This document shows positions 21,020 through 37,368 of a stretch of 64,000 nucleotides of DNA, in pieces. Position numbers and translations under genes: made by a program. Under the pieces are notes generated by a model. It was not told where the DNA came from, searched no databases, and saw only the letters and a list, made by a program, of their open reading frames with translations. The stretch covers positions 15,940 through 79,939 of the forward strand of contig JAEKNX010000011.1 in NCBI GenBank assembly GCA_016839055.1, given 5' to 3'. The first letter of the stretch is position 1. Each line of letters starts with the position of its first letter. Source of the DNA: Spirochaetales bacterium (GTDB lineage Bacteria; Spirochaetota; Spirochaetia; UBA9216).

Positions 21020-21745
21020 TTATCTTGACACTGCGTTTTCGGAGTTTATTTTCTCTATAATACTATTAAACCGCGCTTCGGCCTTCATTTTTACCTTAGG
21101 CTCCTTTTCGGTGCAGCCCTGTATTCGTTCCCGAAACAGTTTTCCTGCTTCGCTGCTTAGGTTACTGTAAATTCTGTATTTTACTCCATCGGTCTCATTT
21201 GCAACAAGAACCTTGAGCGATTCCCAGTCAAAAGCCTTTAATAGAAAGCTTATCTCATTATCGCGGGCGCCCAGAAACCAGCTGCCTGGAGATGTTTCTG
21301 ACTTTTTTTCCGCCTTTGACAGCTGTTCAACATATCTTTCATGATCGATAGACTGTATTTTTTGATGACTTTCATAAATGGATGAACCTAAAAACGAGAA
21401 AAGGATCTCTTCAGTAAGCCCGGCAGGATCGCCTCTTAGGATTGAGAGCACCCCCTCTCTGATCATGGACATCTCAAGCAGGAGAATACCGTCGGCATTA
21501 CGAACCGCTATCTTGATTTCAAGGAGTCTATCAACGGCTGAATAATCGTAGCCTTTTCCAACAAGCTTGATGCTGTCGCGCAGAAAAGAATTGGAAATCG
21601 AATCAGCATTCTGTCCTAGCACTATGAATCCGGAAGATCTGGCTTTTTTAGACTGATCGAGGATCTCCTTAATAAGTTTTAGAGAATGTTTTTTTTCGGC
21701 ATCGGTACATTTTATTCTGTTTCCAAATGAATATTCATATGTCAT
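21020..21745 (-). CDS. Hypothetical protein with weak FliG-C / MotA-cytoplasmic-loop-like segments
   Basis: 241 aa. GILLLEMSMIREGVLSILRGDPAGLTEEIL resembles the GLLALE...G..P block of MotA/FliG-type proteins. The C-terminal LVANETDGVKYRIYSNLSSEAGKLFRERI resembles the FliG C-terminus. The ORF is solid, but the function call is weak. Confidence 0.35.
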   Translation of the reverse strand: MTYEYSFGNRIKCTDAEKKHSLKLIKEILDQSKKARSSGFIVLGQNADSISNSFLRDSIKLVGKGYDYSAVDRLLEIKIAVRNADGILLLEMSMIREGVLSILRGDPAGLTEEILFSFLGSSIYESHQKIQSIDHERYVEQLSKAEKKSETSPGSWFLGARDNEISFLLKAFDWESLKVLVANETDGVKYRIYSNLSSEAGKLFRERIQGCTEKEPKVKMKAEARFNSIIEKINSENAVSR

Positions 21746-22004
21746 TGTGCGACTCCCTGAATTTTATTAAGCAAATCATTCTAGTTTATCACGCCCGGCA
21801 GGCTTATTCAGGGTTGCTTAAGTGTTTTTATATATAATATTGATTTATTATGATTTCAGCCTTCGATTCTTGACGAAACTCTTTAGAAATATAGCACCAA
21901 GGAAGACTTAGCTTACCTAAAGAAAGCGGTTTTAGTTTTAACCATCTTCCCAATTTGTAAAATTATATAAAGTATTTCTTGACAACTCGTAAAAGCCATG
22001 TAAG

Positions 22005-22044
22005 ACTACTGATATGATTAGTAGTAATACTACAAATATACTAG
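22005..22044. promoter_or_regulatory. Cluster of ACTAC/GTAGT inverted repeats: candidate GntR-family operator
   Basis: The elements are ACTACT (22005-22010), 9 nt, AGTAGT (22020-22025), the 6-1-6 palindrome GTAGTA-A-TACTAC (22021-22033), and ACTAGT nearby. They lie 40-75 nt upstream of the GntR gene, just downstream of a TTGACA box (21979-21984). Confidence 0.3.
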
Positions 22045-22080: not shown

Positions 22081-22740
22081 ATGGGCGATCCTAATACAAC
22101 ATTGAAGTCACAGATTTATGAGAAGATTCTTACGAAAATCATTGATAATGAATTTCCTATGGATGCTCTTCTCGTTGAAAGCCAGTTGATAAAGATGTTC
22201 AATGTCAGCAGGGCACCTGTTCGGGAAGCCCTCATTGAATTATGCCGGGAAGAAATTCTTAAAAATATTCCGAGAGCCGGTTACCAGATTGTACGTATTT
22301 CAGAAAAGAAGATGCGGGACGCTTTTCAGCTCAGGCTGATTCTGGAAGTTGAGGGATTGAGGCTCGGTTTTGAACGGATGACAGATGAAAATATTGAAGA
22401 ACTGACCGCTATTGCCGCTGATTCCGATAGAATCAGGGCTGAGGGAAAGAGTTCCGAATCTCTTGCGTTGAAGATGCAGCTCAATGATCAGTTTCACCTC
22501 AAACTAACTGAAATGTCAGGAAATGCGCTCATACATAAAACCCTGGGTGAGACTTTTTCATTGATAAGACGGGGGCTTGCCCAGATTATGATTCATGAAT
22601 ACGGTATGCCTTCTCCTAATACAACCTTTCATACCGGACTGGTTCAGGGGCTTCAGGAAAGGAATTTTGAAAAGGCTGAGAAGAATCTTAATGATGACAT
22701 ACTCTGTTACAAACAGAATGTCTGGAGCAAAATATTTTAA
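22081..22740 (+). CDS. GntR-family transcriptional regulator (FadR/FCD subfamily)
   Basis: 219 aa. The N-terminal wHTH is LVESQLIKMFNVSRAPVREALIELCREEIL and the C-terminal domain is all-helical. An AAGGAAG RBS is present. Confidence 0.88.
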   Translation: MGDPNTTLKSQIYEKILTKIIDNEFPMDALLVESQLIKMFNVSRAPVREALIELCREEILKNIPRAGYQIVRISEKKMRDAFQLRLILEVEGLRLGFERMTDENIEELTAIAADSDRIRAEGKSSESLALKMQLNDQFHLKLTEMSGNALIHKTLGETFSLIRRGLAQIMIHEYGMPSPNTTFHTGLVQGLQERNFEKAEKNLNDDILCYKQNVWSKIF

Positions 22741-22831
22741 ATCCTACCGGGGAATCCCGGTTTGATAATAAAACAGACGAAAGAGATGGCCGCCGCAGCG
22801 GTCCTTCGTCGAAAATCTTTCTGGAGGAAAT

Positions 22832-23977
22832 ATGAATAGAAATGTAAAGGGTCTTGTTGTTTTATTGGCGCTTTCACTACTTGCCATGCCGCTTTTTGCT
22901 GGTGGAAAGCAGGAAGTAAACAATGATGAGAGCGACACAATCCACATTGCGCTTACAGCGCCACTTTCTGGTGACTATGCAGAATACGGCACAAACTTTC
23001 AGCGTTCTGTTGAGATGGGAATCGAGTTTATTAATAAAGCCGGTGGTGTACTTGGTAAAGATCTTGTCCTTTCCGTTGGAGACTCAAAAGGTGATCCAAA
23101 GGAATCCGCAACTCTGGCTCAGAAATGGACATCTGATCCTACCATAGTGGCAGAAATCGGTGATTTTACTTCTACTTGCTGTATGGCTTCACAGCCCATA
23201 TATGACCAGAGTGAAATGGTTCAGCTTTCACCTACTGCCAGCCACAGTGATTTTGCTCCAGGTTCAGATTGGAGTTTCGGAATTGTAGGAACTCAGGCTG
23301 GAGAAGGTCCTTTCATGGCAGATTTTGCTTATAACGGACTTGGTTTGCGAACCATTGCTGTAATCAATATCAACAATGACTGGGGAATTGACACTCAGAA
23401 ATATTTTTCTGAAGCTTTCGAAAAACTCGGCGGTGTAATTATTGCCACTGAATCATATTTTGACGGTGAAAAAGACTTTACCGCAATACTTACTAAAATG
23501 AAGGCAACAAAGCCTGATGCTCTCTTTATGGCTGCAATGTACAATGATGGTGCTCTTATCAGCAAACAGCGTGTAAAGCTTGGATGGGATGTTGTAGTTG
23601 TAGGTCCAAGCTCACTCTACTCTGAACAGCTTCTTACACTCGGCGGTGACGCTGTTGAAGGTCTTTACACCAATGTAAGTTTCTTCACCGAAGATCCTGC
23701 CGAAGATGTTCAGTTTTACGTAACTGAGTTTGAGTCACGCTATGGTGTTAAACCAAACTTTCATGCAGCGCTTGCTTTTGACGCTATCAATATTCTTGCC
23801 GCAGCAATAGAAAAAGCAGGAACAACTGATCGCACTGCAATCAAGGAAGCCCTTGCAAAAACTACCGACTTTAAAGCACTTACCGGTTCAATAACCTTCA
23901 CTCCGGTCGGAGATGCTGTTAAACAGTATACAAAAGTCTGGATAACTGACGGTAAATTTAAAGTATATAACGACTAA
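22832..23977 (+). CDS. ABC transporter substrate-binding protein, LivJ/LivK (Peripla_BP_6) type
   Basis: 381 aa. It has a signal peptide (LLALSLLAMPLFAGG). The blocks IHIALTAPLSGDYAEYG, INNDWG and GPVSFD-like TGSITFTPVGDAV are typical of branched-chain/amino-acid-type SBPs. Confidence 0.88.
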   Translation: MNRNVKGLVVLLALSLLAMPLFAGGKQEVNNDESDTIHIALTAPLSGDYAEYGTNFQRSVEMGIEFINKAGGVLGKDLVLSVGDSKGDPKESATLAQKWTSDPTIVAEIGDFTSTCCMASQPIYDQSEMVQLSPTASHSDFAPGSDWSFGIVGTQAGEGPFMADFAYNGLGLRTIAVININNDWGIDTQKYFSEAFEKLGGVIIATESYFDGEKDFTAILTKMKATKPDALFMAAMYNDGALISKQRVKLGWDVVVVGPSSLYSEQLLTLGGDAVEGLYTNVSFFTEDPAEDVQFYVTEFESRYGVKPNFHAALAFDAINILAAAIEKAGTTDRTAIKEALAKTTDFKALTGSITFTPVGDAVKQYTKVWITDGKFKVYND

Positions 23978-24041
23978 AATTAATTCCAAAGGGATCTGTA
24001 TTCTACAGATCCCTCCTTCACTTTTATTTTTTAAGGGGTTA

Positions 24042-24911
24042 TTGATGTTACTGCAACAGTTAATTAATGGAATCACCCAGGGGAGCATCTTCGCATTATT
24101 GGCAATTTGTTTTTCTTTAGTCTGGGGATTACTGAAAATGGTCAATTTTGCACTGGGCGAAATATATATGTTCGGTGCATTCACAGGATGGTTAGTTGTA
24201 ACTTATATCTGTCCTAATATATTCGTAGCCATGGCAGCCGGAATAGCTGTTGGCTGGCTTCTTGGATTTATAATAGAAAAATCCGCGTTTAAGGCGCTTA
24301 GAGGAGCGCCTCATATTGCCTCGCTTATCTGTACGCTTGGGTTCTCAGTACTATTGAAAGAACTTGCTAATGTCCTTTTCGGTGCTGAAACAAAATCAAT
24401 GCCTGATTTTTTCAGCTCATCGGCATTGACAATTGGTCAGGCTAATATAACATGGCTGCAAATTATAATGATATTAACAGCAGCTATTATCCTGATCGGA
24501 TTACAGTTGTTTATTTATAAAACCAGAATGGGATTAGGTATCAGAGCGGTGTCCATGGATCATCAGGCAGCCGGCTTAATGGGAATCAACGTAGACAGAG
24601 TCATTTCAGTTGCGTTTTCTCTTTCCGGCGCACTAGCGGGGCTGGTAGGAGTGCTCGGCGCTACCTACTATAACGCGTTAAATCCGCATATGGGATTTTC
24701 CCCAGGCATGAAAGGTTTTACAGCCGCGGTTTTTGGTGGAATAACCTCAATTCCGGGGGCCATTTTAGGCGGTTATCTACTCGGCATTATTGAGAATCTC
24801 AGTGTTCAGGTTGTTTCTTCAGGATACAGGGATTTTATTGCCTATCTTATCCTGATATTGTTCCTGTTATTTCGTCCGAATGGAATTCTCGGAAAGAAAT
24901 CAAAGCTATAG
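24042..24911 (+). CDS. ABC transporter permease, LivH family
   Basis: 289 aa and polytopic. The N-terminus LLQQLINGITQGSIFALLAI and the LivH-like C-terminus FLLFRPNGILGK support the call. Confidence 0.9.
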   Translation: MMLLQQLINGITQGSIFALLAICFSLVWGLLKMVNFALGEIYMFGAFTGWLVVTYICPNIFVAMAAGIAVGWLLGFIIEKSAFKALRGAPHIASLICTLGFSVLLKELANVLFGAETKSMPDFFSSSALTIGQANITWLQIIMILTAAIILIGLQLFIYKTRMGLGIRAVSMDHQAAGLMGINVDRVISVAFSLSGALAGLVGVLGATYYNALNPHMGFSPGMKGFTAAVFGGITSIPGAILGGYLLGIIENLSVQVVSSGYRDFIAYLILILFLLFRPNGILGKKSKL

Positions 24912-24920
24912 GAGGAAATA

Positions 24921-25931
24921 ATGATAGCTGAAATAAAGAAATTCGCCGAGAAAAATAAACTCGTTGTTACAATAGCTGTGGCAGCACTTCTTCTTCTCAT
25001 CCCGTTAATATTGGGCAGTCCGTATCTTCTTCGGGTTGCAATAATGATATGTATTTTTGTGATTCTTTCTTCGAGTCTTAACCTGATAATAGGGTTTACC
25101 GGAATGTTCTCACTCGCACATGCAGCCTTCTATGGTATTGGAGCCTACTGTTCCGCCCTGCTGTCAATTAAGGTCGGGCTTCCGTTTTTAATAACTCTCC
25201 CGCTGGCTGGTATTCTTGCTGGACTTATCGGCGCAATTATAGGGCTGGCCACGCTGAGACTGAGGGAAACATTCCTTGTATTTGGAACTCTCGCCTTTGG
25301 AGAAATAGTTCGTATCGTAATAATGAACTGGACGTCCTTGACCAGAGGTCCAATGGGTATTCCAGGTATCCCTTTTCCAAAAATATTCGGATTTGAAATA
25401 AGCAATTATACCCATTACTATTATATGGTACTTTTCTTTGCCGTTATAGTAGTTTTATTAATTCGAAGACTTTACAACTCACGTGTCGGCCGTGCCTTTA
25501 TTGCTTTAAGGGAAGATGAAACGGGTGCCGCGTCAATGGGTGTTAATGTTTTTGCATATAAGGTCTGGGCATTTGCCCTCGGCTGTTTTTTTGCCGGAAT
25601 TGCGGGCGCGCTTTATGCCCACTTTGTACGGTATATATCCGCCGACCAGTTTGGAGTTAATGAATCGTTTGCAATTCTCACAATGGTGGCACTCGGAGGA
25701 ACAGGTTCCATAATCGGTCCTATTGTAGGTGCTGTTATTCTTATGGTCTTTCCGGAACTCTTCCGTTTTCTCGCTGAATACAGAATGGTATTATATGGCT
25801 TAATCCTTATCGTCATAATGATGTTTAAACCGGAAGGAATAGCCGGATTCAAGGGGATGTTCCCCAGAGACTTTGATATGATGTCAATTTTCAAACGTAA
25901 GAAGTCTAAAACCGAGGTCGAGGAGGCATAA
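24921..25931 (+). CDS. ABC transporter permease, LivM family
   Basis: 336 aa and polytopic. The blocks SLNLIIGFTGMFSLAHAAFYGIGAY and LREDETGAASMGVN are typical of LivM. Confidence 0.9.
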   Translation: MIAEIKKFAEKNKLVVTIAVAALLLLIPLILGSPYLLRVAIMICIFVILSSSLNLIIGFTGMFSLAHAAFYGIGAYCSALLSIKVGLPFLITLPLAGILAGLIGAIIGLATLRLRETFLVFGTLAFGEIVRIVIMNWTSLTRGPMGIPGIPFPKIFGFEISNYTHYYYMVLFFAVIVVLLIRRLYNSRVGRAFIALREDETGAASMGVNVFAYKVWAFALGCFFAGIAGALYAHFVRYISADQFGVNESFAILTMVALGGTGSIIGPIVGAVILMVFPELFRFLAEYRMVLYGLILIVIMMFKPEGIAGFKGMFPRDFDMMSIFKRKKSKTEVEEA

Positions 25932-25933
25932 CT

Positions 25934-26698
25934 ATGATACTGGAAATAAAAAACCTAAATAAAGCCTTCGGCGGGTTAAAGGCTGTTAACGATGTTAACA
26001 TGGAAATTGAAAAGGGCAGTATTCATGCTGTAATAGGACCTAACGGTGCTGGAAAAACAACCTTTTTTAATTGTATAACATCTATTAACCCTTCTAATTC
26101 GGGCGAGGTTCTCTGGAAAGGTGAAGACATCGCGAAACTGTCGACACATATAATCTCAACGAGGGGGATATCGCGAACTTTTCAGAACATAAGACTTTTT
26201 TCATATATGTCCGTCCTCGATAATGTACTTGTTGGAACTCATAATCTTACTAAATCATTTATTGTTGATGCGTTCCTCCATAGCAAGAGGTTTAAGACTG
26301 AAGAAAAAGACATGCGCGATTTTGGACTTGAACTTCTGAAAAAAGTAGGTCTTGAAGAGAAAGCCGGAGAATACGCACGTAATCTTCCTTATGGAGAACA
26401 GCGAAAACTCGAAATTGCAAGAGCAATGGGGAGTAAACCCGAGATTCTTCTTTTAGATGAGCCTGCTGCCGGAATGAACAGTCAGGAAACTGCAGAGCTT
26501 GTGAATTTCATTCGTCAACTGAAGAATGAGGGTTTTACAGTTCTGCTTATTGAACATGATATGAAACTAGTTATGAGTCTCGCCGATAAAATATCTGTTC
26601 TTGATCATGGAAGTAAAATAGCTGAAGGTGTGGCATCCGAGATTCAATGCAACGAAAGAGTAATTGAGGCTTATCTCGGCAAAAGGAGGTATGAGTAA
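25934..26698 (+). CDS. ABC transporter ATP-binding protein, LivG family
   Basis: 254 aa. It has Walker A (GPNGAGKTT), the signature-like YGEQRKLEIARA and Walker B (LLLLDEPAAG). Confidence 0.92.
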   Translation: MILEIKNLNKAFGGLKAVNDVNMEIEKGSIHAVIGPNGAGKTTFFNCITSINPSNSGEVLWKGEDIAKLSTHIISTRGISRTFQNIRLFSYMSVLDNVLVGTHNLTKSFIVDAFLHSKRFKTEEKDMRDFGLELLKKVGLEEKAGEYARNLPYGEQRKLEIARAMGSKPEILLLDEPAAGMNSQETAELVNFIRQLKNEGFTVLLIEHDMKLVMSLADKISVLDHGSKIAEGVASEIQCNERVIEAYLGKRRYE

Positions 26699-27438
26699 TG
26701 GCTATTCTTGAAATCGATAAACTGGTAGTTCACTACGGAAAGATTAATGCTCTCAAGGGTGTTTCGCTTTCAATTAACGCCGGAGACATTGTGACGATAA
26801 TCGGAGCAAACGGCGCGGGTAAAACTACTCTTCTCCAGGCAATAAGCGGTGTTATAAAATGTACATCCGGTTCGGTGAAATTTAATGGTAAGAACATAAC
26901 CAATGAACGCTCAGACAAAATCCTGCAGCATGGGGTAGCTCATGTTCCTGAGGGCCGAAGAGTTTTTAGTGAACTTACCGTTGAAGAAAATCTGCTCTGT
27001 GGAGCATATCTGAATAATGATAAGGCTGAGAAAAAAAGACTGATTGATGAGCAATATGAAATATTTCCACGGCTTGCGGAAAGAAAAAAACAGGAAGCTG
27101 GAAGCCTCTCCGGCGGTGAGCAGCAGATGCTCGCAATTGCAAGAGGTATGATGTCAAAACCGGCAATTGTTCTTCTTGACGAACCAAGCCTCGGACTTGC
27201 ACCCATACTTGTTGAGAGGATATTTGACATGATTGCCGAAATCAACAAAATGGGGAAGACCATTTTACTCGTCGAGCAAAATGCAAATATTGCTCTTCAT
27301 GTAGCTTCATACGGCTACATTCTTGAAACAGGAAAGATAACTGTAGAAAATACAACTGAAGTTCTTCGAAGCGATGATACTGTCAAGAAAGCTTATCTTG
27401 GAATGTCAGCCCCGGAATGTGAGGATATAAATGAATAA
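26698..27438 (+). CDS. ABC transporter ATP-binding protein, LivF family
   Basis: 246 aa. It has Walker A (GANGAGKTT), the signature LSGGEQQMLAIARG and Walker B (VLLDEPSLGL). Its ATG overlaps the LivG stop. Confidence 0.92.
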   Translation: MAILEIDKLVVHYGKINALKGVSLSINAGDIVTIIGANGAGKTTLLQAISGVIKCTSGSVKFNGKNITNERSDKILQHGVAHVPEGRRVFSELTVEENLLCGAYLNNDKAEKKRLIDEQYEIFPRLAERKKQEAGSLSGGEQQMLAIARGMMSKPAIVLLDEPSLGLAPILVERIFDMIAEINKMGKTILLVEQNANIALHVASYGYILETGKITVENTTEVLRSDDTVKKAYLGMSAPECEDINE

Positions 27439-28366
27439 AATTGAAAGAGTAGACGCCGTCCTGCAGGGGAAAAGCCCTGATTACGCCCCGATTTCCTGCT
27501 GGTACCATTTTGGATTACAATTTCTACCTGGTGAGAAATTCGCGGATATTGTTCTGTCATATTTTAAAAATTATGACTATGACTGGCTGAAAGTTATGAA
27601 TGATTATTTCTACCCCATGCCTGCGGGAATGGATGCGCTTAAAACTGCAGAGGATCTTAAGAAAATAACAGTTTTTGATATCGATAATTCTCCCTTCGCA
27701 GAGCAGCTTAAAGCAATTGAGATAATAGCAAAGGAACTTAAAGGAAAGGCTTATTTTTGCGATACAATTTTTGATCCCTATCAGGCGCTTCAGAAAAGTC
27801 CGGTAGGAGAACATCTTCCCAGATTAATGAAGGAAGAACCTGATGCGGTCCTTGATGCACTCGATGTTGTAAGTGATAATATTATCGCTTATGCCAAACG
27901 AACCCTTCAGGCGGGCACTCACGGCATATTCATGTCTGTTCTAGCCGGAAGCGATCAAATGAGCCGGGATGATTTTCTGAAATTTGAAAAACCATTTGCA
28001 ATGAAAGTCTTTCAGGCAGTAAAAGACATGGGCGCAATGAATACGGCTCATCTTCACGGCAAGAATGTTGATATTACAAACTGCCTCGATTTTCCGGTCT
28101 CTGTTTTTAGCTGGGAAGACAGGCTTTCAGGCAATATCAGCCTCGCGGATATGAAAGATAAGTGGGGCGGATGTGTGATGGGCGGTCTCGATAATACAAT
28201 TATGACAAGACGTACCCCTGAAGCCCTGATGGAACATACACGAGAGGGAATGAAACTGGGCGGTGAATCCAGATTCTTTCTTGCCAACGGCTGCAGTACG
28301 CCGGGACATATGGACCCGCTGGCTCTGAAGGCCATGGTTGATGTTGCACAGGGGAAAATTAAATAA
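27431..28366 (+). CDS. Uroporphyrinogen-decarboxylase (URO-D) superfamily protein of unknown specificity
   Basis: 311 aa. The N-terminal ERVDAVLQGKSPDYAPISCWYHF and the overall length and pattern resemble short URO-D/MtaA-like enzymes. It overlaps the LivF gene by 8 nt. Confidence 0.65.
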   Translation: MNKIERVDAVLQGKSPDYAPISCWYHFGLQFLPGEKFADIVLSYFKNYDYDWLKVMNDYFYPMPAGMDALKTAEDLKKITVFDIDNSPFAEQLKAIEIIAKELKGKAYFCDTIFDPYQALQKSPVGEHLPRLMKEEPDAVLDALDVVSDNIIAYAKRTLQAGTHGIFMSVLAGSDQMSRDDFLKFEKPFAMKVFQAVKDMGAMNTAHLHGKNVDITNCLDFPVSVFSWEDRLSGNISLADMKDKWGGCVMGGLDNTIMTRRTPEALMEHTREGMKLGGESRFFLANGCSTPGHMDPLALKAMVDVAQGKIK

Positions 28367-28371
28367 TCAAA

Positions 28372-29856
28372 ATGAGCTACCTCGTTGTCGATTATGGAAC
28401 ATCCAGCTGCCGGGCCTCACTGGTAGATGAGCTCGGCAGTATTGTCTCATCCTGCCGGAAAAGTGTTTCGGTATTAAATGACGGCCACACAGCTGAAATT
28501 GATACCGGGAAGGCCTGGAGCACAGTTTCCTCAGTAATCAGGGAGCTGCTTGAAAAAAATCACAAACCGGAGATCCGGGCGGTGGGGGTCAGCTCACTCC
28601 TGGGCTGGGTTTTTCTGGATTCCGGAAACCGCCCGCTTGGCAACAGCATCATCTGGATGGACAGCAGAAGCAGCGGGTGTCTTGATTCAGAAATCATGAA
28701 AGAGAAAGATCTTGTCTATAAGAAGACAGGCCGGCGTTTGAGTCCTGAACTGCTTATCTCGAAATTGGCGTGGCTGCGGGCAAATAATCCTGATTTGCTC
28801 GAATGCACAGCGAAAATAATCAGCCTGAAAGATGAGCTGCTAAGGCGTCTTACCGGCGAGATTGTGACGGATTACGCGCATCTGAATTATACAATGCTCT
28901 GGAACATCGGAGAGCACCGGATGGATGCCGATATGCTAGAGCTCGCAGGGGTGTCACCCTCTCTTCTTGCTGAAGGCGGATATCCATATGAGCAAGCGGG
29001 CAGGATAAGCCCTGAGGCCGCTGCTGCTACCGGGCTGCGAAAAGGGCTGCCGGTCATCCTGGGAGCGATTGACGGCACCACCGCTATGTACGGCGGAGGT
29101 ATAGCAACAGCTTCGTCGGGAACTCTGGTCTCAGGAACAACCGACGTTTTCATGACACTCCTTGATGCCGCGGAATTAGAGGCTTTGGGAAATAATGATG
29201 TGCTCACTGTCAATACCGGAATGCTTCCTGGGTTTTTTGCTGCAGGTGGTTCCACTGGTGTCTCAGGGGGCGCCCTGACGAAGATGAGTGAGCTGCTTGG
29301 CGGAGATTCTTCTGATCTGCTTGAGGGCGCATCTAAAGTGCCTCCGGGCGCGGACGGTCTTCTTTTTTGCCCCGGGCTGACGGGAGAGAGGGCTCCTTAC
29401 TGGAACGCGGACATCTCGGGAAGCTTTATCGGCCTTCGGATGAATCATGAGAGAGGTCATATTATTAGAGCGCTGATGGAAGGTGCGGCTTTCAGGCTCA
29501 AGCGCCTTTTTCTGGAACTCTTCGGTAATACCTCTGGCCCGGAGAGAATTTTTACTGTAGGCGGCTGTTCCAATATTGAGCTGTGGAACAGTCTGAAGGC
29601 AGATGTCACCGGGATGACCCTGATTAAACCAGCTGAACTTGAGGCTACGACGATAGGTACTGCTCTTTTTTGTGAATGCTTTTTTAACGGAGCCGATAAA
29701 ATGTCGTCTGTCAGCGGTAAATGGCTAAAGCCGGATACTGTTTATAGTCCGGTTCAGGTTAATAATATTTTGTATAATGATTTATTCAGGATTTATGAAC
29801 AGTTTATTAAAACCAATATTGGTAATTATGCCGCTCTAAGCAGCTTTAAAGGATAA
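28372..29856 (+). CDS. FGGY-family carbohydrate/polyol kinase
   Basis: 494 aa. The N-terminal phosphate-1 motif is VVDYGTSSCRASL. The later blocks GAIDGTTAMYGGG and GGCSNIELWNSLKADVTG match FGGY N- and C-terminal domains. Confidence 0.85.
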   Translation: MSYLVVDYGTSSCRASLVDELGSIVSSCRKSVSVLNDGHTAEIDTGKAWSTVSSVIRELLEKNHKPEIRAVGVSSLLGWVFLDSGNRPLGNSIIWMDSRSSGCLDSEIMKEKDLVYKKTGRRLSPELLISKLAWLRANNPDLLECTAKIISLKDELLRRLTGEIVTDYAHLNYTMLWNIGEHRMDADMLELAGVSPSLLAEGGYPYEQAGRISPEAAAATGLRKGLPVILGAIDGTTAMYGGGIATASSGTLVSGTTDVFMTLLDAAELEALGNNDVLTVNTGMLPGFFAAGGSTGVSGGALTKMSELLGGDSSDLLEGASKVPPGADGLLFCPGLTGERAPYWNADISGSFIGLRMNHERGHIIRALMEGAAFRLKRLFLELFGNTSGPERIFTVGGCSNIELWNSLKADVTGMTLIKPAELEATTIGTALFCECFFNGADKMSSVSGKWLKPDTVYSPVQVNNILYNDLFRIYEQFIKTNIGNYAALSSFKG

Positions 29857-29860
29857 ACAG

Positions 29861-30349
29861 ATGAGTAAAGAAGATATGGTAACGGAAACAGAGCTGATAA
29901 CGAAATTCAGAGCTGCGGTAAAAGACAGGGCAACCTGGTTTGCTCTTCTCTACAGGGAATTCGCGGAGGTTCTGCCCGAGAACAGAGTGGAAGACGCTTG
30001 CAGGAAGGCTATATATTCATACGGCAGACTGAAAGCCTCCCGTGATAAGACAAAACTGACGGCGCAGTCCTTGCTTGATAACTTTGTGGAGACAGGTGGA
30101 GCGAAAATATTTGAAGCTGAAATTGAGAATACGGATAAAGGTGTGCTTAATAAGGTACATAACTGCGCCCTCGTGGATGCCTGGAGAGAAATGGGCTGTT
30201 CACCGGAAGAAGTAGACCTTTTTTGTGATATAGCAATGGAAGGAGATCGGGGCAGGGCGGAAGGCCATGGGATAAATCTGGAATTGAAGGAGACACTGGC
30301 CAAAAATGATAATTTCTGTTGGATCTGTCTGTCAGATTCGGCAATTTAA
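29861..30349 (+). CDS. Small Cys4 protein, L-2-amino-thiazoline-4-carboxylate (ATC) hydrolase-like family, paralog 1
   Basis: 162 aa. The blocks RATWFALLY, NCALVDAW, LFCDIAMEGDRGRA and a C-terminal CWIC are shared with paralogs 2 and 3. The family assignment (PF14196-like) is from memory of the motif pattern. Confidence 0.55.
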   Translation: MSKEDMVTETELITKFRAAVKDRATWFALLYREFAEVLPENRVEDACRKAIYSYGRLKASRDKTKLTAQSLLDNFVETGGAKIFEAEIENTDKGVLNKVHNCALVDAWREMGCSPEEVDLFCDIAMEGDRGRAEGHGINLELKETLAKNDNFCWICLSDSAI

Positions 30350-30377
30350 TGCACATACTACACAATGGAGATATTTT

Positions 30378-30866
30378 ATGAGTGAAAACAAAGAAATGGT
30401 TACAAAAGATGAAATGATTACAAAAATCAGAGCGGCAATAGGTGACAGAGCCACCTGGTTTGCCCTTCTTTATGAAGAATTCTGTAATGAATTACCCGAA
30501 GAAAAAGTAATAGAATTAAGCCGGAAGGCAATAACCAAATACGGTACCATGAAGGTGATAAAGGATCCTGATCCTTTTAAGGCGAAAGACTGGGTTCTCA
30601 GACATAAAGAGAAAGGCTCCGCCGATGTCTTTGATTCAGATATAGAATACACCGAAACGGAGGCCACCCAGCGAATGAAAAACTGCGCCCTCGTTGATGC
30701 CTGGAAGGCCATGAATTACAGTCCTGAAAAACTAGACCTTTTTTGTGATATTGCTATGGATGGTGACAGAGGAAGAGCTGCAGGACATGAAAATGTTACA
30801 ATGGAACTTCATGAAACAATTGGTAAGGGCTGTGATTTTTGCCGTTTGGTAATTAAAGAAAACTGA
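30378..30866 (+). CDS. Small Cys4 protein, ATC-hydrolase-like family, paralog 2 (tandem duplicate)
   Basis: I place the start at MSENKEM (ATG 30378), which aligns with the paralog 1 N-terminus. The ORF-track start at 30306 would overlap paralog 1. It has RATWFALLY, NCALVDAW, LFCDIAMDGDRGRA and a C-terminal CDFC. Confidence 0.55.
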   Translation: MSENKEMVTKDEMITKIRAAIGDRATWFALLYEEFCNELPEEKVIELSRKAITKYGTMKVIKDPDPFKAKDWVLRHKEKGSADVFDSDIEYTETEATQRMKNCALVDAWKAMNYSPEKLDLFCDIAMDGDRGRAAGHENVTMELHETIGKGCDFCRLVIKEN

Positions 30867-30882
30867 TCAGGAGGACAGAATA

Positions 30883-31431
30883 TTGAATACGTATTTCTGT
30901 GGAATGATCGGTACCGGAAAGACCACAATCGGGTTAAGACTTGCCGAAGAGCTGGGCCTGGATTTTTTTGATCTCGACCGGGAAATGGACAGACAGCTGG
31001 GGTATTCGTTTCACCGACTGGTAGCAGAAAAAGGGTGGCTTGCCTTCCGGGAACTTGAATATTCAATCTGCCGGGGATTCTCAAAAAGGAAGAACTCAAT
31101 TATCTGTCTCGGCGGGGGAACCGTAAGGTATGACTGGAATGTGGATGTACTCAGGCCCTCCGGGAAGCTGATACTGCTGGAAGCCTCTATTGATGCGCTT
31201 GTTGAACGTGTATCGAAGGCCGACAGACCCCGTGTTAATGAAGGTGTAAGTCTTGAAGAGGACCTTCGCATGATGTGGGAGCAGTCAAGAGACAAGTATC
31301 TCTCTGCCGCCGACATTATCTACCGTACCGATGAAAAAACCGAAGAAGAAGAAGTTTGGGATCTTAAGAACATGATATTAACCGATCCTGAGTTTGTCGA
31401 CCTGAAAAAGAATTGTAAGATACCATCATAA
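30883..31431 (+). CDS. Shikimate-kinase-family P-loop kinase (substrate uncertain)
   Basis: 182 aa with a TTG start. The P-loop is GMIGTGKTTIG, followed by DLD...G.S, FRELE and GGGTV blocks as in AroK/gluconokinase-type kinases. The genomic context is catabolic rather than aromatic amino-acid biosynthesis. Confidence 0.65.
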   Translation: MNTYFCGMIGTGKTTIGLRLAEELGLDFFDLDREMDRQLGYSFHRLVAEKGWLAFRELEYSICRGFSKRKNSIICLGGGTVRYDWNVDVLRPSGKLILLEASIDALVERVSKADRPRVNEGVSLEEDLRMMWEQSRDKYLSAADIIYRTDEKTEEEEVWDLKNMILTDPEFVDLKKNCKIPS

Positions 31432-31443
31432 AGGAGTGAAGAT

Positions 31444-31818
31444 ATGAAAAAATTAATAGCAACAGAAAATGCGCCAGGCGCAATAGGGCCGTATTCTCAG
31501 GCGGTTGAAGTAAACGGAATGATATATACATCCGGCCAACTTGGAATAGATCCGGCGACCGGAGAGCTGCCCGAAGGGGTGGAGGCTCAGACTGAAATGG
31601 CGTTGAAGAACGCTGAAGCAATTCTGAAGTCTGAGGGACTTTCTCTCGCGAATGTATTTAAGACCCTTGTTTTTATCAAGGATATGAATGACTTCGGAAA
31701 GATGAACGGAATTTACAGCAAGTTTTTCAGTAAAGATTTTCCGGCCAGAAGTTGTGTGGAAGTTGCCAGGCTGCCGAAAGACGGACTGGTTGAAATTGAA
31801 GTTATCGCAATTCGTTAG
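31444..31818 (+). CDS. ridA: RidA/YjgF family reactive enamine-imine deaminase
   Basis: 124 aa. It has APGAIGPYSQAV, IYTSGQLGIDP and PARSCVEVARLPKDGLVEIEVIA. This is a near-canonical RidA. Confidence 0.9.
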   Translation: MKKLIATENAPGAIGPYSQAVEVNGMIYTSGQLGIDPATGELPEGVEAQTEMALKNAEAILKSEGLSLANVFKTLVFIKDMNDFGKMNGIYSKFFSKDFPARSCVEVARLPKDGLVEIEVIAIR

Positions 31819-31827
31819 GATGGCAGA

Positions 31828-33147
31828 ATGAATAAAGAATTATGGAACGATTTTATAAGCTTGATAAAGCAGGAAGTTGTTCCTGCTTTGGGCTGCACCG
31901 AACCCATAGCTGTGGCACTTGCCGCAGCCAAGGCGGCCGAGACTCTATCTGAAGCGCCCGAAAGAATCGAAGTATACCTTAGCCAGAATGTGCTTAAGAA
32001 TGGAATGAGTGTAGGTATACCTGGAACCGGCTTATATGGACTTGAAATTGCAACTGCCGTAGGCGCGCTGAGCGGTAAATCAGAATTCGGTCTTGAGGTT
32101 CTGAAAGACCTTTCTGCTGAAAATCTCCAGAAAGCAAAGGATCTGCTTGCATCAGACAAAATAAAGGTTTTTCATAAAGAGATTGATGAAGTCCTCTATA
32201 TTGAAGTTGTTGTCATGGCCGGAGAAAATTCGGCACGAGTAATTATAAAAGGACGTCACGACAATATATGCCTTGTTGAGCATAATGGAATAATTCTTCT
32301 GGATAAGGATGAAGCTGAGGCCGGAGAGGTTGTTGTGAATCCTTTGGATAAGGTTCTTGCTGAGATTAGTGAGAAAGAAATCTGGGAATTCGCCATGAAT
32401 GCTCCCCTTGAAGATCTTGATTTTATCATGGAAGCGGTTGAGCTGAACAAGAAGATCTCCGACGAAGGCCTGATTGGCGACTACGGGCTTCGAGTTGGAA
32501 AGTCAATAGATGAAAATATCTTAAAAGGATTTCTTCAGTCAGACCTCAGCAATGATGCTGTTAAGCGAACCGCAAGCGGGGCGGACGCTCGGATGGCAGG
32601 CTCGAATCTGCCGGTTATGAGCAACTCAGGAAGCGGAAATCAGGGTATTACGGCAACAATGCCGGTTGTAGCAGTGGCCGAAAAACTCAACTCAAGCAAT
32701 GAACAGCTTATCAGGGCTTTAATTCTCAGTCATCTGACATCCATCCACATGAAATCAAAGATGAACAGACTCTCTCCCTTATGCGGAGCATCAGTAGCGG
32801 CAACCGGGGCCAGCTGCGGCGTTGTTTTTCTGCTTGGCGGAGTCTATGAGCACGTTGAATATGCAATCAAAAATATGGTTGGAAATATTGCCGGAATGGT
32901 CTGCGACGGCGCTAAAAACAGCTGTGCCTTAAAGGTTGCCTCCTGCGTCAGCGCCGGTGTGCAGGGTGCCCTTTTGGCGATTAACAGTATTAGAGTGTCA
33001 GAGATAGAAGGACTCGTTGAAGAGGATATTGAACGGACTATAAATAATCTGGGAATTCTCGGTTCCAGTGGAATGGCAGATACTGACAGGGTCATTCTTT
33101 CAATTATGACATCTAAAGAAAATAATAAAGAAAAGAAGGTAATATAG
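31828..33147 (+). CDS. UPF0597 / YhaM(CyuA)-type L-cysteine desulfidase family protein (serine dehydratase alpha-like)
   Basis: 439 aa. The N-terminal LIKQEVVPALGCTEPIAVALAAAKA and later blocks SNSGSGNQGIT, LSPLCGA and DGAKNSCALKV resemble the Cys-containing motifs of this family. Confidence 0.8.
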   Translation: MNKELWNDFISLIKQEVVPALGCTEPIAVALAAAKAAETLSEAPERIEVYLSQNVLKNGMSVGIPGTGLYGLEIATAVGALSGKSEFGLEVLKDLSAENLQKAKDLLASDKIKVFHKEIDEVLYIEVVVMAGENSARVIIKGRHDNICLVEHNGIILLDKDEAEAGEVVVNPLDKVLAEISEKEIWEFAMNAPLEDLDFIMEAVELNKKISDEGLIGDYGLRVGKSIDENILKGFLQSDLSNDAVKRTASGADARMAGSNLPVMSNSGSGNQGITATMPVVAVAEKLNSSNEQLIRALILSHLTSIHMKSKMNRLSPLCGASVAATGASCGVVFLLGGVYEHVEYAIKNMVGNIAGMVCDGAKNSCALKVASCVSAGVQGALLAINSIRVSEIEGLVEEDIERTINNLGILGSSGMADTDRVILSIMTSKENNKEKKVI

Positions 33148-33638
33148 TGGCCATTAAAAACAATCCTCAGGAAAGAGATTCACACATCGAGTCAATAAGA
33201 AATGCAATCGAACACAGGGCTGCCTGGATGTATTTTCTTCTGGATGAGGCGAAAAAGCGGGGTCTTGAATGGGAAGATTTCGGACGTGAGGCAATTTTGC
33301 GCTGCGGAAGGTTTCATGGTCAGACAAAATTTCCCGATACCGAAAATATGAAAGTCTTCGGTGAAGCCTTTGCTACTGAAGAACTCAAGAAGGTCTTCGA
33401 CATGAACGTAGTCCAATGTGATGAAGAGGCTTTCACCGTCGAATTTAATTATTGTCCGCTTGTTTCATCATGGATGAAGCATACCGGAGATGAGAAGGAT
33501 ATTGAGCTTCTCTGTGACATTGCAATGGATGGCGACAGAGGGATTGTTGAAGAATATCCAGGTTTCTCCTTTGACCTGCAGAGCACAATCGCTTGTGGTG
33601 ATGATGTCTGCAGGCTGACGATTACAAAAAGCAAATAG
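33147..33638 (+). CDS. Small Cys4 protein, ATC-hydrolase-like family, paralog 3 (divergent)
   Basis: 163 aa. The GTG start overlaps the upstream stop. It has RAAWMYFLL, YCPLVSSW, LLCDIAMDGDRG and a C-terminal CGDDVC. Confidence 0.5.
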   Translation: MAIKNNPQERDSHIESIRNAIEHRAAWMYFLLDEAKKRGLEWEDFGREAILRCGRFHGQTKFPDTENMKVFGEAFATEELKKVFDMNVVQCDEEAFTVEFNYCPLVSSWMKHTGDEKDIELLCDIAMDGDRGIVEEYPGFSFDLQSTIACGDDVCRLTITKSK

Positions 33639-33662
33639 ATTTTTTTCTCTAATTATACGACT

Positions 33663-33711
33663 CCATCATTCATGATTTTCTTTCAGGGGCATTTATGGAT
33701 GATGGTTTTTT
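33663..33711 (+). terminator. Candidate operon terminator
   Basis: CCATCATTCAT (33663-33673) pairs with ATGGATGATGG (33695-33705) with one mismatch, followed by TTTTTT (33706-33711). The loop is large (21 nt), so the fold is uncertain. Confidence 0.45.
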
Positions 33712-33767
33712 AATTAGATTCAATTCTTCCTTGATATCCATAGTCAATCGAAATATAATCGGCAATA

Positions 33768-35336
33768 ATGAAAGGGCAATTAACAGTATCGGACCTTAAG
33801 TTCGAATATCCGGAATATGCAGAGTTTGAGGCAGATCAGGTTCTCCGAGGACTCAGCTTCTGCTGCCGTTCCGGCGAGATAACAGTCATAATCGGCGGAG
33901 CCGAATCCGGAAAGAGCACTCTGGCTCTAATCCTTGCCGCCCTGGTTCCCAGCCATACTGGAGGACAGCTCAGCGGAAGGGTCGTTCTTGACGGACTGGA
34001 TATTCTGGGTTCTCCGGCAGCTGAGATAATTGAAAATTGCGGAATAATTTTTCAGGACCCGGAGAAACAAACTGTGACAACCGACTGTTTCTCTGAAGCC
34101 GCATTCGCGCTCGAATCACTCGGTCTGGCAGAAGAAGAAATTATCTCCCGCGTCGAGGGTTCCTTCGAAACTCTGGGCATCGGGCACCTTCTGGAATCAG
34201 GAACGGTGGAAACCTCGGGCGGTGAGAAGAAGAAGCTCGCAATTGCAGGACAGCTCTGCGTGAATCCTGATTTATGGATTATGGATGAGACTTTTGAGGA
34301 GCTCGACAGTCCCTCGAGAGTCAAGCTGCTTGATTCTTTGAAAGATAATAGAAGATCAGTCTTGATATTTACTTCGAAATACTATGACATTTTCGAGAAG
34401 GCCGACGCGTTTTATCATCTGCGTGACGGAAGACTTTCCGAACGGGAGGAGCTTCCGTTCAGTCCCGGTTTCACCCTTGGGCTCAGGGAAGACGGTCTGA
34501 TTCCTGATTTCGTCACTACCAGCCGGCGGCCGGCGGCCTCTGATTCCCTGCCCGACTTGATTTCAGTCAGAGATTTGGCTTTCAGCTATTCGACCGGCAG
34601 GGAAGGCATAGCTGGTGACCATTGGGCGTTCGACCTCAATATTGACGAGTTCAGCCTGACAGACGGCGAGATAGTCTCTATTGTCGGCCGAAACGGCTGC
34701 GGGAAATCAACCTTTGGAAAACTGCTCTGTGGACTCCTTATCCAGGACCGTGGAGAAATCAGGGCCGCCGGTTTCGGCGTTCCGGCGGCGGAAGAGCCGG
34801 CGGCCATGACGGCTCAATCCGGGCCGCCTGCTTCGACCGATTTTCTCAACAGCTTCTGCGCCTACATGTTTCAGAATCCTGATTATCAGATATTTCTGCC
34901 CACCGTATATCAGGAACTCTCTTGGGGACTGGTGGAAGCGGGCATTCCGCATAGCGAGATAAAAGAAAGGGTTGAGCTGGCAATTGAGAATTTTAATCTT
35001 CCAGGCGCGTCAACTCCACCTGCCATGATGAGCTATAGTGCCCGAAAGAGGCTTCAGGTGGCCGTCTACTACCTACTAAAGCGTCCGGTATTCATCCTCG
35101 ATGAGGCTGACACGGGGCTCTCTTATCATGATTTTAAGGGGCTTATAGAGCAGCTCCGGAGTATCAGCCGGGGAATCATAATAATTACGCACAATCTTGA
35201 GCTCGCGGCCGAAGTATCGGATCGCGTCCTCGGAATGAGCGGCGGGCGGATAACCGAAGATCTCAGGGAATTCAGCACCGACAGCCTCAAGACATGGCTC
35301 TCGGCATCAGCTGGCTCCGGGAGGACGGGCAGATGA
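33768..35336 (+). CDS. ECF-transporter ATPase, fused EcfA-EcfA' (two ABC domains)
   Basis: 522 aa. Walker A motifs are GGAESGKST and GRNGCGKST, with an SGGEKKKLAIA signature and Walker B motifs (WIMDETFEELD, FILDEADTGL). An EcfT gene lies immediately downstream. Confidence 0.85.
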   Translation: MKGQLTVSDLKFEYPEYAEFEADQVLRGLSFCCRSGEITVIIGGAESGKSTLALILAALVPSHTGGQLSGRVVLDGLDILGSPAAEIIENCGIIFQDPEKQTVTTDCFSEAAFALESLGLAEEEIISRVEGSFETLGIGHLLESGTVETSGGEKKKLAIAGQLCVNPDLWIMDETFEELDSPSRVKLLDSLKDNRRSVLIFTSKYYDIFEKADAFYHLRDGRLSEREELPFSPGFTLGLREDGLIPDFVTTSRRPAASDSLPDLISVRDLAFSYSTGREGIAGDHWAFDLNIDEFSLTDGEIVSIVGRNGCGKSTFGKLLCGLLIQDRGEIRAAGFGVPAAEEPAAMTAQSGPPASTDFLNSFCAYMFQNPDYQIFLPTVYQELSWGLVEAGIPHSEIKERVELAIENFNLPGASTPPAMMSYSARKRLQVAVYYLLKRPVFILDEADTGLSYHDFKGLIEQLRSISRGIIIITHNLELAAEVSDRVLGMSGGRITEDLREFSTDSLKTWLSASAGSGRTGR

Positions 35337-36112: not shown

Positions 36113-36113
36113 G

Positions 36114-36761: not shown

Positions 36762-36836
36762 GAATCTCATCATTAATTCAGAGGAAAATCAGCGTCTCGG
36801 ATTGTTATTACCGTTAAAGTTGGGTAATATTGAATT

Positions 36837-37364: not shown

Positions 37365-37368
37365 AGCT

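Follow-up and report, generated by a model that had tools for sequence, protein, structure and literature searches.

What is the function of an operon that joins an amino acid importer to two kinases, a member of the uroporphyrinogen decarboxylase (UroD) superfamily, the enamine/imine deaminase RidA, a cysteine desulfidase and three small proteins of the 2-amino-thiazoline-4-carboxylate (ATC) hydrolase family? This combination is found in a stretch of 64,000 nucleotides (nt) from a Spirochaetales bacterium (GCA_016839055.1, JAEKNX010000011.1, positions 15,940 to 79,939 of the forward strand), which is referred to here, at its full length, as the window. In the open reading frame (ORF) map, a GntR gene at 22081-22740 is followed by 14 plus-strand genes spanning 22832 to 33638. 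We tentatively favor, at somewhat less than an even chance, a reading in which the operon is a substrate-inducible catabolic unit for a conjugate of an amino acid with a sugar or polyol, the amino acid part probably being derived from cysteine. Profile searches with each ORF recovered all of the predicted Pfam families above their gathering thresholds, and the features of the unit are as follows.

22081 to 22740, plus strand: GntR/FCD-family regulator, first gene of the unit (PF00392 and PF07729)
22741 to 22766, plus strand: weak hairpin after the GntR gene, an inverted repeat with 11-nt arms that are 82% complementary
22832 to 23977, plus strand: Liv/HAAT-type periplasmic solute-binding protein (SBP; PF13458, E value of 5.5e-60)
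23990 to 24014, plus strand: hairpin (11-bp stem) 3' of the SBP gene, attenuator-like and internal to the operon (terminator scan)
24042 to 24911 and 24921 to 25931, plus strand: two LivH/LivM-type permeases (PF02653 in both)
25934 to 26698 and 26698 to 27438, plus strand: two LivG/LivF-type ATP-binding cassette (ABC) ATPases (PF00005 in both; one bears the BCA_ABC_TP_C tail, PF12399)
27431 to 28366, plus strand: UroD-fold enzyme with His207-x-His209...Cys288 (PF01208)
28372 to 29856, plus strand: FGGY-family kinase, xylulokinase/gluconokinase-like, with no equivalog assignment (PF00370 and PF02782)
29861 to 30349, plus strand: ATC-hydrolase-like protein of the V4R fold, paralog A (PF14196; three conserved Cys and an Asp)
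30378 to 30866, plus strand: ATC-hydrolase-like protein of the V4R fold, paralog B, directly 5' of the next gene (PF14196)
30883 to 31431, plus strand: shikimate kinase-like (SKI-like) P-loop kinase (PF01202)
31444 to 31818, plus strand: RidA, enamine/imine deaminase (PF01042 and TIGR00004)
31828 to 33147, plus strand: CyuA-type [4Fe-4S] L-cysteine desulfidase of 439 amino acids (aa) by prediction (PF03313; PDB entries 9he0 and 9fsl)
33147 to 33638, plus strand: ATC-hydrolase-like protein of the V4R fold, paralog C, whose start overlaps the CyuA stop by 1 nt (PF14196)
33663 to 33711, plus strand: intrinsic terminator, a hairpin stem followed by U6

The distances listed between the operon genes (+64, +9, +2, -1, -8, +5, +4, +28, +16, +12, +9, and -1 nt) bear out an earlier, sequence-only reading of this DNA, which had described fourteen same-strand genes separated by -8 to +64 nt and had taken them for a single transcription unit; the spacing, the terminator, and a conserved promoter/operator agree with that proposal. 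The weak hairpin that it had noted with the GntR/FCD gene is the inverted repeat listed above, and its T-tract hairpin downstream of the last gene has a 13-bp stem at 33663-33705 (free energy of -16.5 kcal/mol; z = -3.98 against shuffled sequences). The best promoter-like site of the region, with 11 of 12 matches, lies 3' of this terminator at 33731-33759; it starts a separate, unrelated operon encoding an energy-coupling factor (ECF) transporter, DUF2459, and Amidohydro_2. Two gene starts required attention. The second ATC-like gene was taken to begin at 30378 and not at the first in-frame start at 30306, since the database call (P0121, 162 aa) is 100% identical, and the SKI-like gene most likely begins with TTG at 30883, since the full P-loop is then retained.

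The head of the operon carries the following elements.

21979 to 21984, plus strand: -35-like TTGACA of the operon promoter, invariant in six aligned orthologous upstream regions
22003 to 22037, plus strand: operator-like inverted repeats with a conserved core, ACTACTGAT-ATG-ATTAGTAGT and the overlapping GTAGTA-A-TACTAC

This operator-like stretch lies downstream of the -35 box and ahead of the GntR start codon, and the window holds one good copy. In the alignment of the six orthologous upstream regions its core, TGATATGAT, is invariant, and the conserved repeat ACTAC-TGATATGAT(C/T)A-GTAGT lies ~24 nt beyond TTGACA. The same core heads the operon in two further loci (L010 and L012), and promoter and operator together are conserved in at least eight species-level loci. 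Of the palindromes that had been pointed out near 22005-22044, what holds is their membership in this conserved repeat; the exact 13-nt palindrome GTAGTANTACTAC was not kept in the other loci, where the conserved element is the overlapping repeat centered on TGATATGAT. An FCD-type GntR gene is found upstream of the cluster in L001, L005, L006, L007, L010, L012, L086, and L090. With winged helix-turn-helix and FCD domains and a conserved palindrome at its own promoter, the GntR protein is predicted to be a FadR-type repressor. No promoter-like site or operator was found between the GntR and SBP genes, and the unit therefore probably comprises 15 genes and is autoregulated; searches for riboswitches and other Rfam families in the leader and in the whole window gave no match. 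As part of the reading favored here it is possible, just short of even, that the operon is repressed by the GntR/FCD protein at a predicted operator overlapping its promoter.

Is the juxtaposition of these genes fortuitous? A scan of one genome per species gave 80 loci, with 110 more divergent loci left out; together with loci fetched for individual homologs, ~88 loci were searched with all 14 window proteins, and partner counts rest on 43 species-level loci with sufficient flanking DNA. UroD-like homologs are plentiful in Spirochaetota and Desulfobacterales. The cluster recurs across the ~88 loci in Spirochaetota, Desulfobacterales/Thermodesulfobacteriota, Holophagaceae, "Candidatus Vecturithrix," and the cultured Sediminispirochaeta smaragdinae, and the order of the genes is preserved in the Spirochaetota, Thermodesulfobacteriota, "Ca. 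Vecturithrix," and Holophagaceae loci. The comparison of neighborhoods that had been called for thus speaks against a chance arrangement: the genes are co-localized in many genomes, and such recurrence indicates that their juxtaposition is functional. Among the assessable loci, partners of the UroD-like gene are the Liv genes (21 loci), the SKI-like kinase (20), the FGGY kinase (16), ATC-like genes (15), CyuA (6), and RidA (4). Recurring sets consist of Liv, UroD-like, and SKI-like genes, with FGGY, with ATC-like genes, or with both added; in Holophagaceae the set is Liv, UroD-like, and a divergent ATC-like gene; and the full set with RidA and CyuA is found in the clade of the window, in a "Desulfosarcina" metagenome-assembled genome (MAG), and in S. 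smaragdinae. The anchor of the cluster is thus a transporter plus the UroD-like enzyme, with the SKI-like kinase, the FGGY kinase, and ATC-like proteins as its usual partners. The earlier proposal that the pathway ends in desulfurization of cysteine stands in part: the window encodes a predicted CyuA and a RidA, but at 6 and 4 of 43 loci, respectively, the cysteine end point is a lineage-specific extension and not part of the core.

Several of these neighborhoods have features of their own. L007 (CAXXOY010000011.1, "uncultured Desulfosarcina sp.") holds the full cluster with the same operator and 72 to 82% protein identity to the window, reflecting either recent transfer between phyla or a mis-binned or misnamed MAG. 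In L004, a Desulfosarcinaceae MAG, genes for MttB-/MtbB-type (Dimeth_Pyl) methylamine methyltransferases lie just upstream of the cluster (644-3513), each split in the way that in-frame pyrrolysine codons would predict; the other loci lack them. In L047, L048, L065, L068, L069, L073, and others, all Deltaproteobacteria without the rest of the cluster, a gene for a cupin of 136 to 155 aa stands directly 5' of the UroD-like gene, often with MsrAB and an extracytoplasmic function (ECF) sigma/anti-sigma pair after it; this cupin neighborhood is a second conserved context of the UroD-like family. In L088 (CP070771.1, 9001-9516) a SKI-like ortholog stands alone beside the same SIR2 gene that flanks a complete cluster in L089, with ParE-toxin and AAA_14/DUF4143 genes upstream; it looks like a remnant after loss of the remaining cluster. 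The remaining recurrent neighbors were set aside as local synteny rather than function: MsrAB, an ECF sigma factor, an MglA-like GTPase, an AI-2E transporter, a topoisomerase, and aminotransferases.

What reaction might the anchor enzyme catalyze? The UroD-like protein scored 83.7 bits against PF01208 (threshold, 23.9) but remained below every NCBIfam cutoff: 26 bits against 303 for TIGR01464 (HemE), and 51, 52, and 19 bits against cutoffs of 235, 600, and 400 for TIGR01463, NF041608, and NF040654. Its family profile matched UROD and MtaA only at an E value of about 1e-4, and an exact-protein look-up gave no match. The family is large, comprising 265 clusters at 50% identity (E < 1e-30). An AlphaFold2 model (mean predicted local distance difference test [pLDDT] score, 95.3) confirmed the (beta/alpha)8 barrel and is equally near to UROD and MtaA, with Foldseek template modeling (TM) scores of 0.78 to 0.83 and 0.74 to 0.80, respectively, followed by MetE. 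His207, His209, and Cys288 are invariant in 52 family sequences and fall, in a profile alignment, on the H-x-C...G-C zinc ligands of MtaA (4ay7). The N-terminal RQAGR Arg motif of UROD is replaced by WYHFGxQ, and NGC stands where UROD has GHG; with 26 bits against a cutoff of 303, these changes led us to reject HemE as an assignment. Since the Arg motif is absent and His-His-Cys occupies the MtaA zinc positions, the enzyme resembles an MT2-type metalloenzyme and not a decarboxylase, a correction to its earlier description as URO-D-like. A diverged branch of longer relatives (P0280, P0290, P0306, and P0344; 575 to 697 aa) lacks the His-His-Cys triad. Their C-terminal tails of 250 to 380 aa, acidic and then Arg/Gly-rich, are disordered and without a Pfam match; apart from one flavin-monooxygenase fusion, such long "fusions" are RG-rich tails and were discarded as a functional clue.

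The resemblance to MtaA raises the question of whether the enzyme is a corrinoid methyltransferase. In the UroD superfamily, S-methyltransferases have His-Cys-Cys ligands, and in O-methyltransferases the cysteines are replaced by carboxylates (Kountz and Balskus preprint, PMC10418091). The His-Cys-Cys triad of MtaA, MtbA, and MtsA was not found at these positions, which hold His207, His209, and Cys288; as judged from the alignments, His-His-Cys is a third type of predicted ligand set in the superfamily. One could nonetheless imagine that the pathway demethylates a methyl-thioether or -selenoether, with the UroD-fold protein acting as a corrinoid methyltransferase on S-methyl-L-cysteine or Se-methylselenocysteine, the corrinoid protein being encoded elsewhere, and the cysteine passing to CyuA and RidA. 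All characterized UroD-superfamily enzymes other than decarboxylases are corrinoid methyltransferases, the nearest clusters on record (type 1 mlp) are tied to methyl-sulfur and methyl-selenium metabolism, the ligand positions are those of MtaA, and the hosts (Desulfobacterales, Holophagaceae, and Spirochaetes) are anaerobes rich in corrinoid metabolism; the idea would also account directly for the joint presence of Liv, UroD-like, CyuA, and RidA proteins. Nevertheless, we consider it improbable. Genes for a corrinoid protein or RACE activase, which are normally co-localized, did not recur near the cluster in the ~88 loci, the triad differs from His-Cys-Cys, and two kinases, a ribokinase variant, and the ATC-like proteins, which are found with the cluster more often than CyuA is, would be left unexplained. 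The missing corrinoid and activase genes, together with the different triad, also mean that the locus is not a type 1 mlp cluster. In the reading favored here, committed bond breaking would instead most plausibly fall to the UroD-like enzyme, because no other protein is linked to the transporter without exception and because it has a putative heteroatom-binding metal site like that of MtaA and MetE.

The two kinases bear on the other part of the substrate. The FGGY kinase has both FGGY domains but falls below the cutoffs of all 12 equivalog models (XylB, 232 bits against 380; GntK, 208 bits); its nearest PDB entry is the gluconate kinase 3gbt. The stretch around this gene (28001-30000) has a G+C content of 0.50, compared to 0.41 to 0.42 in the flanking Liv genes, and its product shares 58% identity with those of the closest relatives, compared to 75 to 88% for the neighboring proteins, which suggests faster evolution or replacement of the FGGY gene. 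The SKI-like kinase is the best-conserved partner (58 to 80% identity across phyla) and is annotated as shikimate kinase everywhere. Structures of shikimate kinases define a set of motifs, and in an alignment to 2pt5 and 3trf the SKI-like protein keeps the P-loop, DxD, FRxxE (Arg58), GGG, LID RP, and R..Y motifs. Its best equivalog score is 87.9 bits (cutoff, 204), and SK-type homoserine kinase gives 67.3 bits (cutoff, 197).

It is conceivable, then, that the operon serves biosynthetic salvage: the enzyme would be a true shikimate kinase or, as in Desulfovibrio, a homoserine kinase of the SK type, and an imported precursor, such as a shikimate- or quinate-like compound or a homoserine-derived one (homoserine lactone or cystathionine), would be converted to shikimate-3-phosphate or O-phosphohomoserine. 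The retention of all shikimate-binding motifs agrees with this idea, as do the top NCBIfam matches to shikimate kinases (with SK-type homoserine kinase also scoring), the rank of this kinase as the most conserved partner, and the existence of minimal clusters of Liv, UroD-like, and SKI-like genes. In addition, a 525-aa AroD-AroE fusion (type I 3-dehydroquinase plus shikimate dehydrogenase, with ~100 extra N-terminal aa) is encoded 5 kb upstream of the operon (15602-17179, plus strand); this neighborhood is not kept in the closest relatives, L005 and L006. Salvage appears distinctly unlikely, given that both equivalog scores lie far below their cutoffs, that the FGGY kinase, the ribokinase, the ATC-like proteins, and CyuA/RidA would have no part in it, and that importer operons under GntR repression are typically catabolic.

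The three small PF14196 proteins are the least familiar components. They scored 55.7, 50.7, and 54.2 bits (threshold, 28.1), and the search for solved structures returned no sequence relative. The AlphaFold2 model of paralog B (pLDDT, 95.3) matched Bet3/TRAPPC3 and the V4R domains of MopR, PoxR, and DmpR in Foldseek (E values of 5e-5 to 5e-3; TM scores of 0.5 to 0.6). The HNOB, V4R, and ATC_hydrolase domains have been described as related, with three conserved cysteines in common (PMC5847659), and in DmpR three Cys and one Glu bind zinc beside the ligand pocket (PMC7264223). Invariant in 54 ATC-like sequences are C103, C123, C155, D124, D130, R131, and W109. The description of these proteins as "Cys4 ATC-hydrolase-like" is therefore right as to the family but not as to the cysteines, of which three are invariant; a fourth occurs only in paralog A. 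On the strength of the models, the ATC-like proteins are assigned to the V4R/Bet3 small-molecule-binding fold with a putative Cys3 zinc site. Paralogs A, B, and C represent three orthologous subfamilies. An ATC-like gene stands immediately 5' of the SKI-like gene in all 23 loci that have both, with 4-bp overlaps in two of them (L002 and L090), and paralog C is translationally coupled to CyuA through the 1-nt overlap.

These proteins had suggested a different substrate: a thiazoline- or thiazolidine-4-carboxylate formed as an adduct between cysteine and an aldose or other polyhydroxy aldehyde, which would be opened by the ATC-like proteins, phosphorylated on the sugar, and desulfurized by CyuA. 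The sole characterized PF14196 member cleaves a thiazoline ring, the defining reaction of an ATC hydrolase being the hydrolysis of L-2-amino-thiazoline-4-carboxylate to N-carbamoyl-L-cysteine; the transporters are of amino acid type, CyuA and RidA are present, and a ribokinase in L010 lends weak support in that it fits release of a free aldose. Against this stand the predicted V4R/Bet3 ligand-binding fold, with a Cys3 site that is structural zinc in DmpR, the many clusters without ATC-like genes and the many without CyuA, and the fact that neither the UroD-like anchor nor a kinase with shikimate-type carboxylate-binding residues would have a role; a catabolic pathway of this kind was not found documented in the literature. 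We regard this substrate as very unlikely.

What, then, is imported? The HAAT-type importer of the window is complete, with a PF13458 SBP, two PF02653 permeases, and two ABC ATPases. The solved structures nearest to the SBP are amino acid binders (3hut, 3td9, 4n0q, 4gnr, and 3ip5), and its score against the LivJ subfamily model, 130 bits with a cutoff of 477, implies that the ligand may be something other than a branched-chain amino acid. The same enzyme set is found with three unrelated transporters: the window has the Liv ABC importer, S. smaragdinae an APC permease related to LAT/FrlA (206 bits against FrlA-like), and L001 an NhaC-like carrier. The latter two loci each also carry Amidohydro_3. 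Carriers of amino acid type point to a substrate with a free amino acid head group. The operon in L010 contains an inserted ribokinase (TIGR02152, 355 bits; cutoff, 300), along with a UroD-like paralog that is 28% identical and has the same ligand motif; the FGGY kinase and this ribokinase argue for a sugar- or polyol-like part.

The distal genes indicate what the amino acid might be in the lineage of the window. CyuA is distinguished from serine dehydratases by three cluster cysteines and by a Cys23/Glu25 dyad that the latter lack, and the [4Fe-4S] ligands of MmCyuA are Cys287, Cys329, and Cys336 (2025 study, PMC12647591). The 439-aa protein aligns with MmCyuA (PDB 9he0/9fsl) at an E value of 1e-35. 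Its cluster cysteines in LSPLC, MVC, and NSC are in register with LSSMC, IIC, and VGC of 9he0, its ALGC23TE25P with the ALGCTE dyad, and its DARMAG and GSGNQG with NTRMIG and KSGNMG of the Arg223/Asn239 anion (carboxylate) site. L001, L005, L006, L007, and L086 have the dyad as well, and L002 (Vecturithrix) has GCTDP, a Glu-to-Asp variant also reported in the CyuA study (PMC12647591). By every sequence criterion, this protein, earlier called cysteine desulfidase-like, is a predicted CyuA-type cysteine desulfidase. RidA exceeded the curated cutoff of TIGR00004 (167 bits; cutoff, 106.25), as its earlier assignment had implied.

Do these two enzymes belong to the pathway, or do they merely share its transcript? 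A mosaic operon, in which a transporter/UroD-like/kinase module and a CyuA-RidA cysteine detoxification module are cotranscribed without a common substrate, would be consistent with the presence of CyuA and RidA in a minority of clusters, with CyuA-type genes of E. coli working alone with a transporter, and with the UroD-like gene being found also alone or with a small cupin. Such an arrangement is nevertheless highly improbable in our view: CyuA is followed, with translational coupling, by an ATC-like paralog whose family is otherwise confined to the core, the order SKI-RidA-CyuA is the same in S. smaragdinae despite its different transporter, and in Vecturithrix CyuA adjoins the cluster in another orientation and arrangement, having been recruited there independently. 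Both the coupling of paralog C to CyuA and this independent recruitment speak for a single pathway that includes the cysteine module.

From the structure and conservation of the operon and from the families, residues, and folds assigned above, we infer the nature of the substrate, the roles of the enzymes, and the order of the steps as follows. The Liv-type ABC importer, replaced in relatives by the APC permease or the NhaC-like carrier, would take up an amino acid-like conjugate, probably a derivative of cysteine, a sulfur amino acid, with a sugar- or polyol-like hydroxylated moiety. The putative UroD-fold metalloenzyme, with His-His-Cys where MtaA/MetE-type enzymes bind zinc and the substrate heteroatom, would then carry out the committed bond-breaking. 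The hydroxylated fragments thus freed could be trapped as phosphate esters by the FGGY and SKI-like kinases and passed to central metabolism; a hydroxy-carboxylate fragment would presumably be the substrate of the SKI-like enzyme, which is coupled to a V4R-fold protein. The V4R-fold, putatively Zn(Cys3)-type ATC-like proteins may act with this kinase, whether as partners that bind a ligand or as enzymes that open a ring. In the Spirochaete lineage the freed amino acid would be L-cysteine, which CyuA would convert to 2-aminoacrylate and H2S, and RidA would convert the 2-aminoacrylate to pyruvate and NH3.

Several observations weigh against this scheme. The His-His-Cys set matches neither the S-type nor the O-type UroD-superfamily methyltransferases, and the SKI-like enzyme, having kept all shikimate-binding motifs, could simply be a shikimate kinase, a circumstance for which the scheme has no explanation. 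No aldolase, dehydrogenase, or lyase that could act on a sugar fragment is encoded in the operon, and the only biochemical precedent for V4R-fold proteins as enzymes is Pseudomonas AtcB. The UroD-like gene is without any partner in 19 of the 43 assessable loci, and the family is therefore not confined to this pathway; the lack of CyuA and RidA in most clusters likewise means that cysteine is perhaps not the product everywhere.

Literature searches on ATC hydrolases, the UroD superfamily, the combination of UroD, shikimate kinase, and FGGY, and cysteine in S. smaragdinae returned no characterized pathway, in agreement with the first assessment that none is known with this combination. It is worth asking how far the novelty might extend. 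A doubtful but more far-reaching version of the scheme is a new anaerobic route for sugar/polyol-cysteine conjugates, in which a corrinoid-independent UroD-fold His2Cys enzyme cleaves a C-S (or C-N) bond and V4R zinc proteins are obligate partners of the SKI-like kinase; it would imply two enzyme functions without precedent and gene transfer across at least five phyla among anaerobes of sediments, peat, and symbioses. In a more radical variant, the V4R/H-NOX-like proteins would carry the cofactor of the UroD-fold enzyme in place of the canonical corrinoid protein. Nothing so far shows chemistry that would surprise a specialist. If the favored reading is correct, fermenting Spirochaetes, sulfate reducers, Holophagae, and the symbiont of a gutless worm would draw on a nutrient that has gone unrecognized, and its degradation would likewise be an unrecognized origin of H2S where oxygen is absent. 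The same reading would provide the first functions for a large UroD-fold subfamily without a corrinoid partner, for stand-alone V4R/ATC-like proteins, and for the SKI-like kinase. The question is directly testable, since there is a cultured host, S. smaragdinae DSM 11293, whose cluster lies within positions 2,900,049 to 2,920,537 of CP002116.1, and a conserved pair of predicted repressor and operator.

The surroundings of the operon in the window can be described briefly. Directly upstream, on the opposite strand (17154-20941 and 21020-21745, minus strand), lie a pair of genes related to XPB/ERCC3-type helicases (Helicase_C_3, ResIII, and ERCC3_RAD25_C) and the gene for a 241-aa protein with a weak match to FliG_C only. 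Downstream, the ECF-transporter operon (33768-38229, plus strand) encodes a fused double EcfA ATPase, EcfT (CbiQ), DUF2459, a riboflavin-type ECF S component, and Amidohydro_2. Next comes the gene for a 595-aa Amidohydro_3 protein, which has a promoter-like site of its own (38875-40662, plus strand). Orthology of this protein to the Amidohydro_3 encoded within the operon in S. smaragdinae and L001 was considered and rejected, as identity is 26% and the gene lies behind the separate ECF-transporter operon. Farther downstream (60003-62660, plus strand), an 885-aa protein joins a GcvT-type aminomethyltransferase domain (GCV_T and GCV_T_C) to a domain like serine hydroxymethyltransferase, an unusual architecture that may relate to one-carbon or demethylation metabolism.

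How does the operon compare with known systems? With CyuA/CyuP of E. coli and Salmonella and with MmCyuA and MjCyuA of Methanococcales it has in common the [4Fe-4S] cysteines, the Cys23/Glu25 dyad, and the Arg/Asn carboxylate site, as well as the coupling to an importer and use under anoxic conditions. Here, however, CyuA is penultimate in a 15-gene unit, accompanied by RidA and nine other non-Cyu proteins; a Liv-type importer and a GntR/FCD regulator take the places of CyuP and DecR; and most homologous clusters lack CyuA. With type 1 mlp clusters (PMC10418091) and MtaA, MtbA, and MtsA, the likeness extends to the TIM barrel of the UroD superfamily, to metal-ligand positions that are identical in sequence, to a strictly anaerobic way of life, and to a suspected link with organosulfur or selenium. 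The differences are that no corrinoid protein or RACE activase is encoded, that there is usually one UroD-like gene rather than the at least two Mlp paralogs of type 1 mlp clusters, that the ligands are His-His-Cys rather than His-Cys-Cys, with weak profile similarity to MtaA (E value of about 3e-4), and that the partners are kinases and V4R-fold proteins.

Pseudomonas AtcABC, which converts DL-2-amino-thiazoline-4-carboxylate to L-cysteine, likewise includes a PF14196 member and has cysteine as its product, as is presumed here, and an M20 amidohydrolase beside the S. smaragdinae cluster recalls AtcC-type carbamoylases. The operon of the window, however, has three small stand-alone paralogs of predicted V4R/Bet3 fold, strictly paired with a P-loop kinase, and no gene of AtcC or AtcA type; its genetic context and host taxa are wholly different. 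The V4R domains of MopR, PoxR, and DmpR and the Bet3/TRAPPC3 proteins have the same predicted fold, and the three conserved Cys plus a carboxylate correspond to the DmpR zinc site (Cys151/Glu172/Cys177/Cys185), but the ATC-like proteins are stand-alone proteins of 160 aa in a catabolic operon, not N-terminal domains of sigma-54 activators. In sum, all of the parts come from known superfamilies, and the sequence of regulator, importer, kinases, and amino acid degradation is the logic of a classical catabolic operon; without a characterized counterpart are the corrinoid-independent His-His-Cys UroD-fold enzyme, the stand-alone V4R/ATC-like proteins, and the SK-like kinase subfamily. The frl (fructoselysine) and fra (fructose-asparagine) operons for Amadori compounds contain no homologous enzymes, relying on a PfkB kinase and a SIS-domain deglycase where this cluster has FGGY and SK-like kinases, a UroD-fold enzyme, and V4R-fold proteins. 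Their logic, however, is the same: a GntR-type regulator, an amino acid-type transporter (the S. smaragdinae permease being FrlA-like), a sugar kinase, and a bond-cleaving enzyme whose action frees an amino acid and a sugar phosphate.

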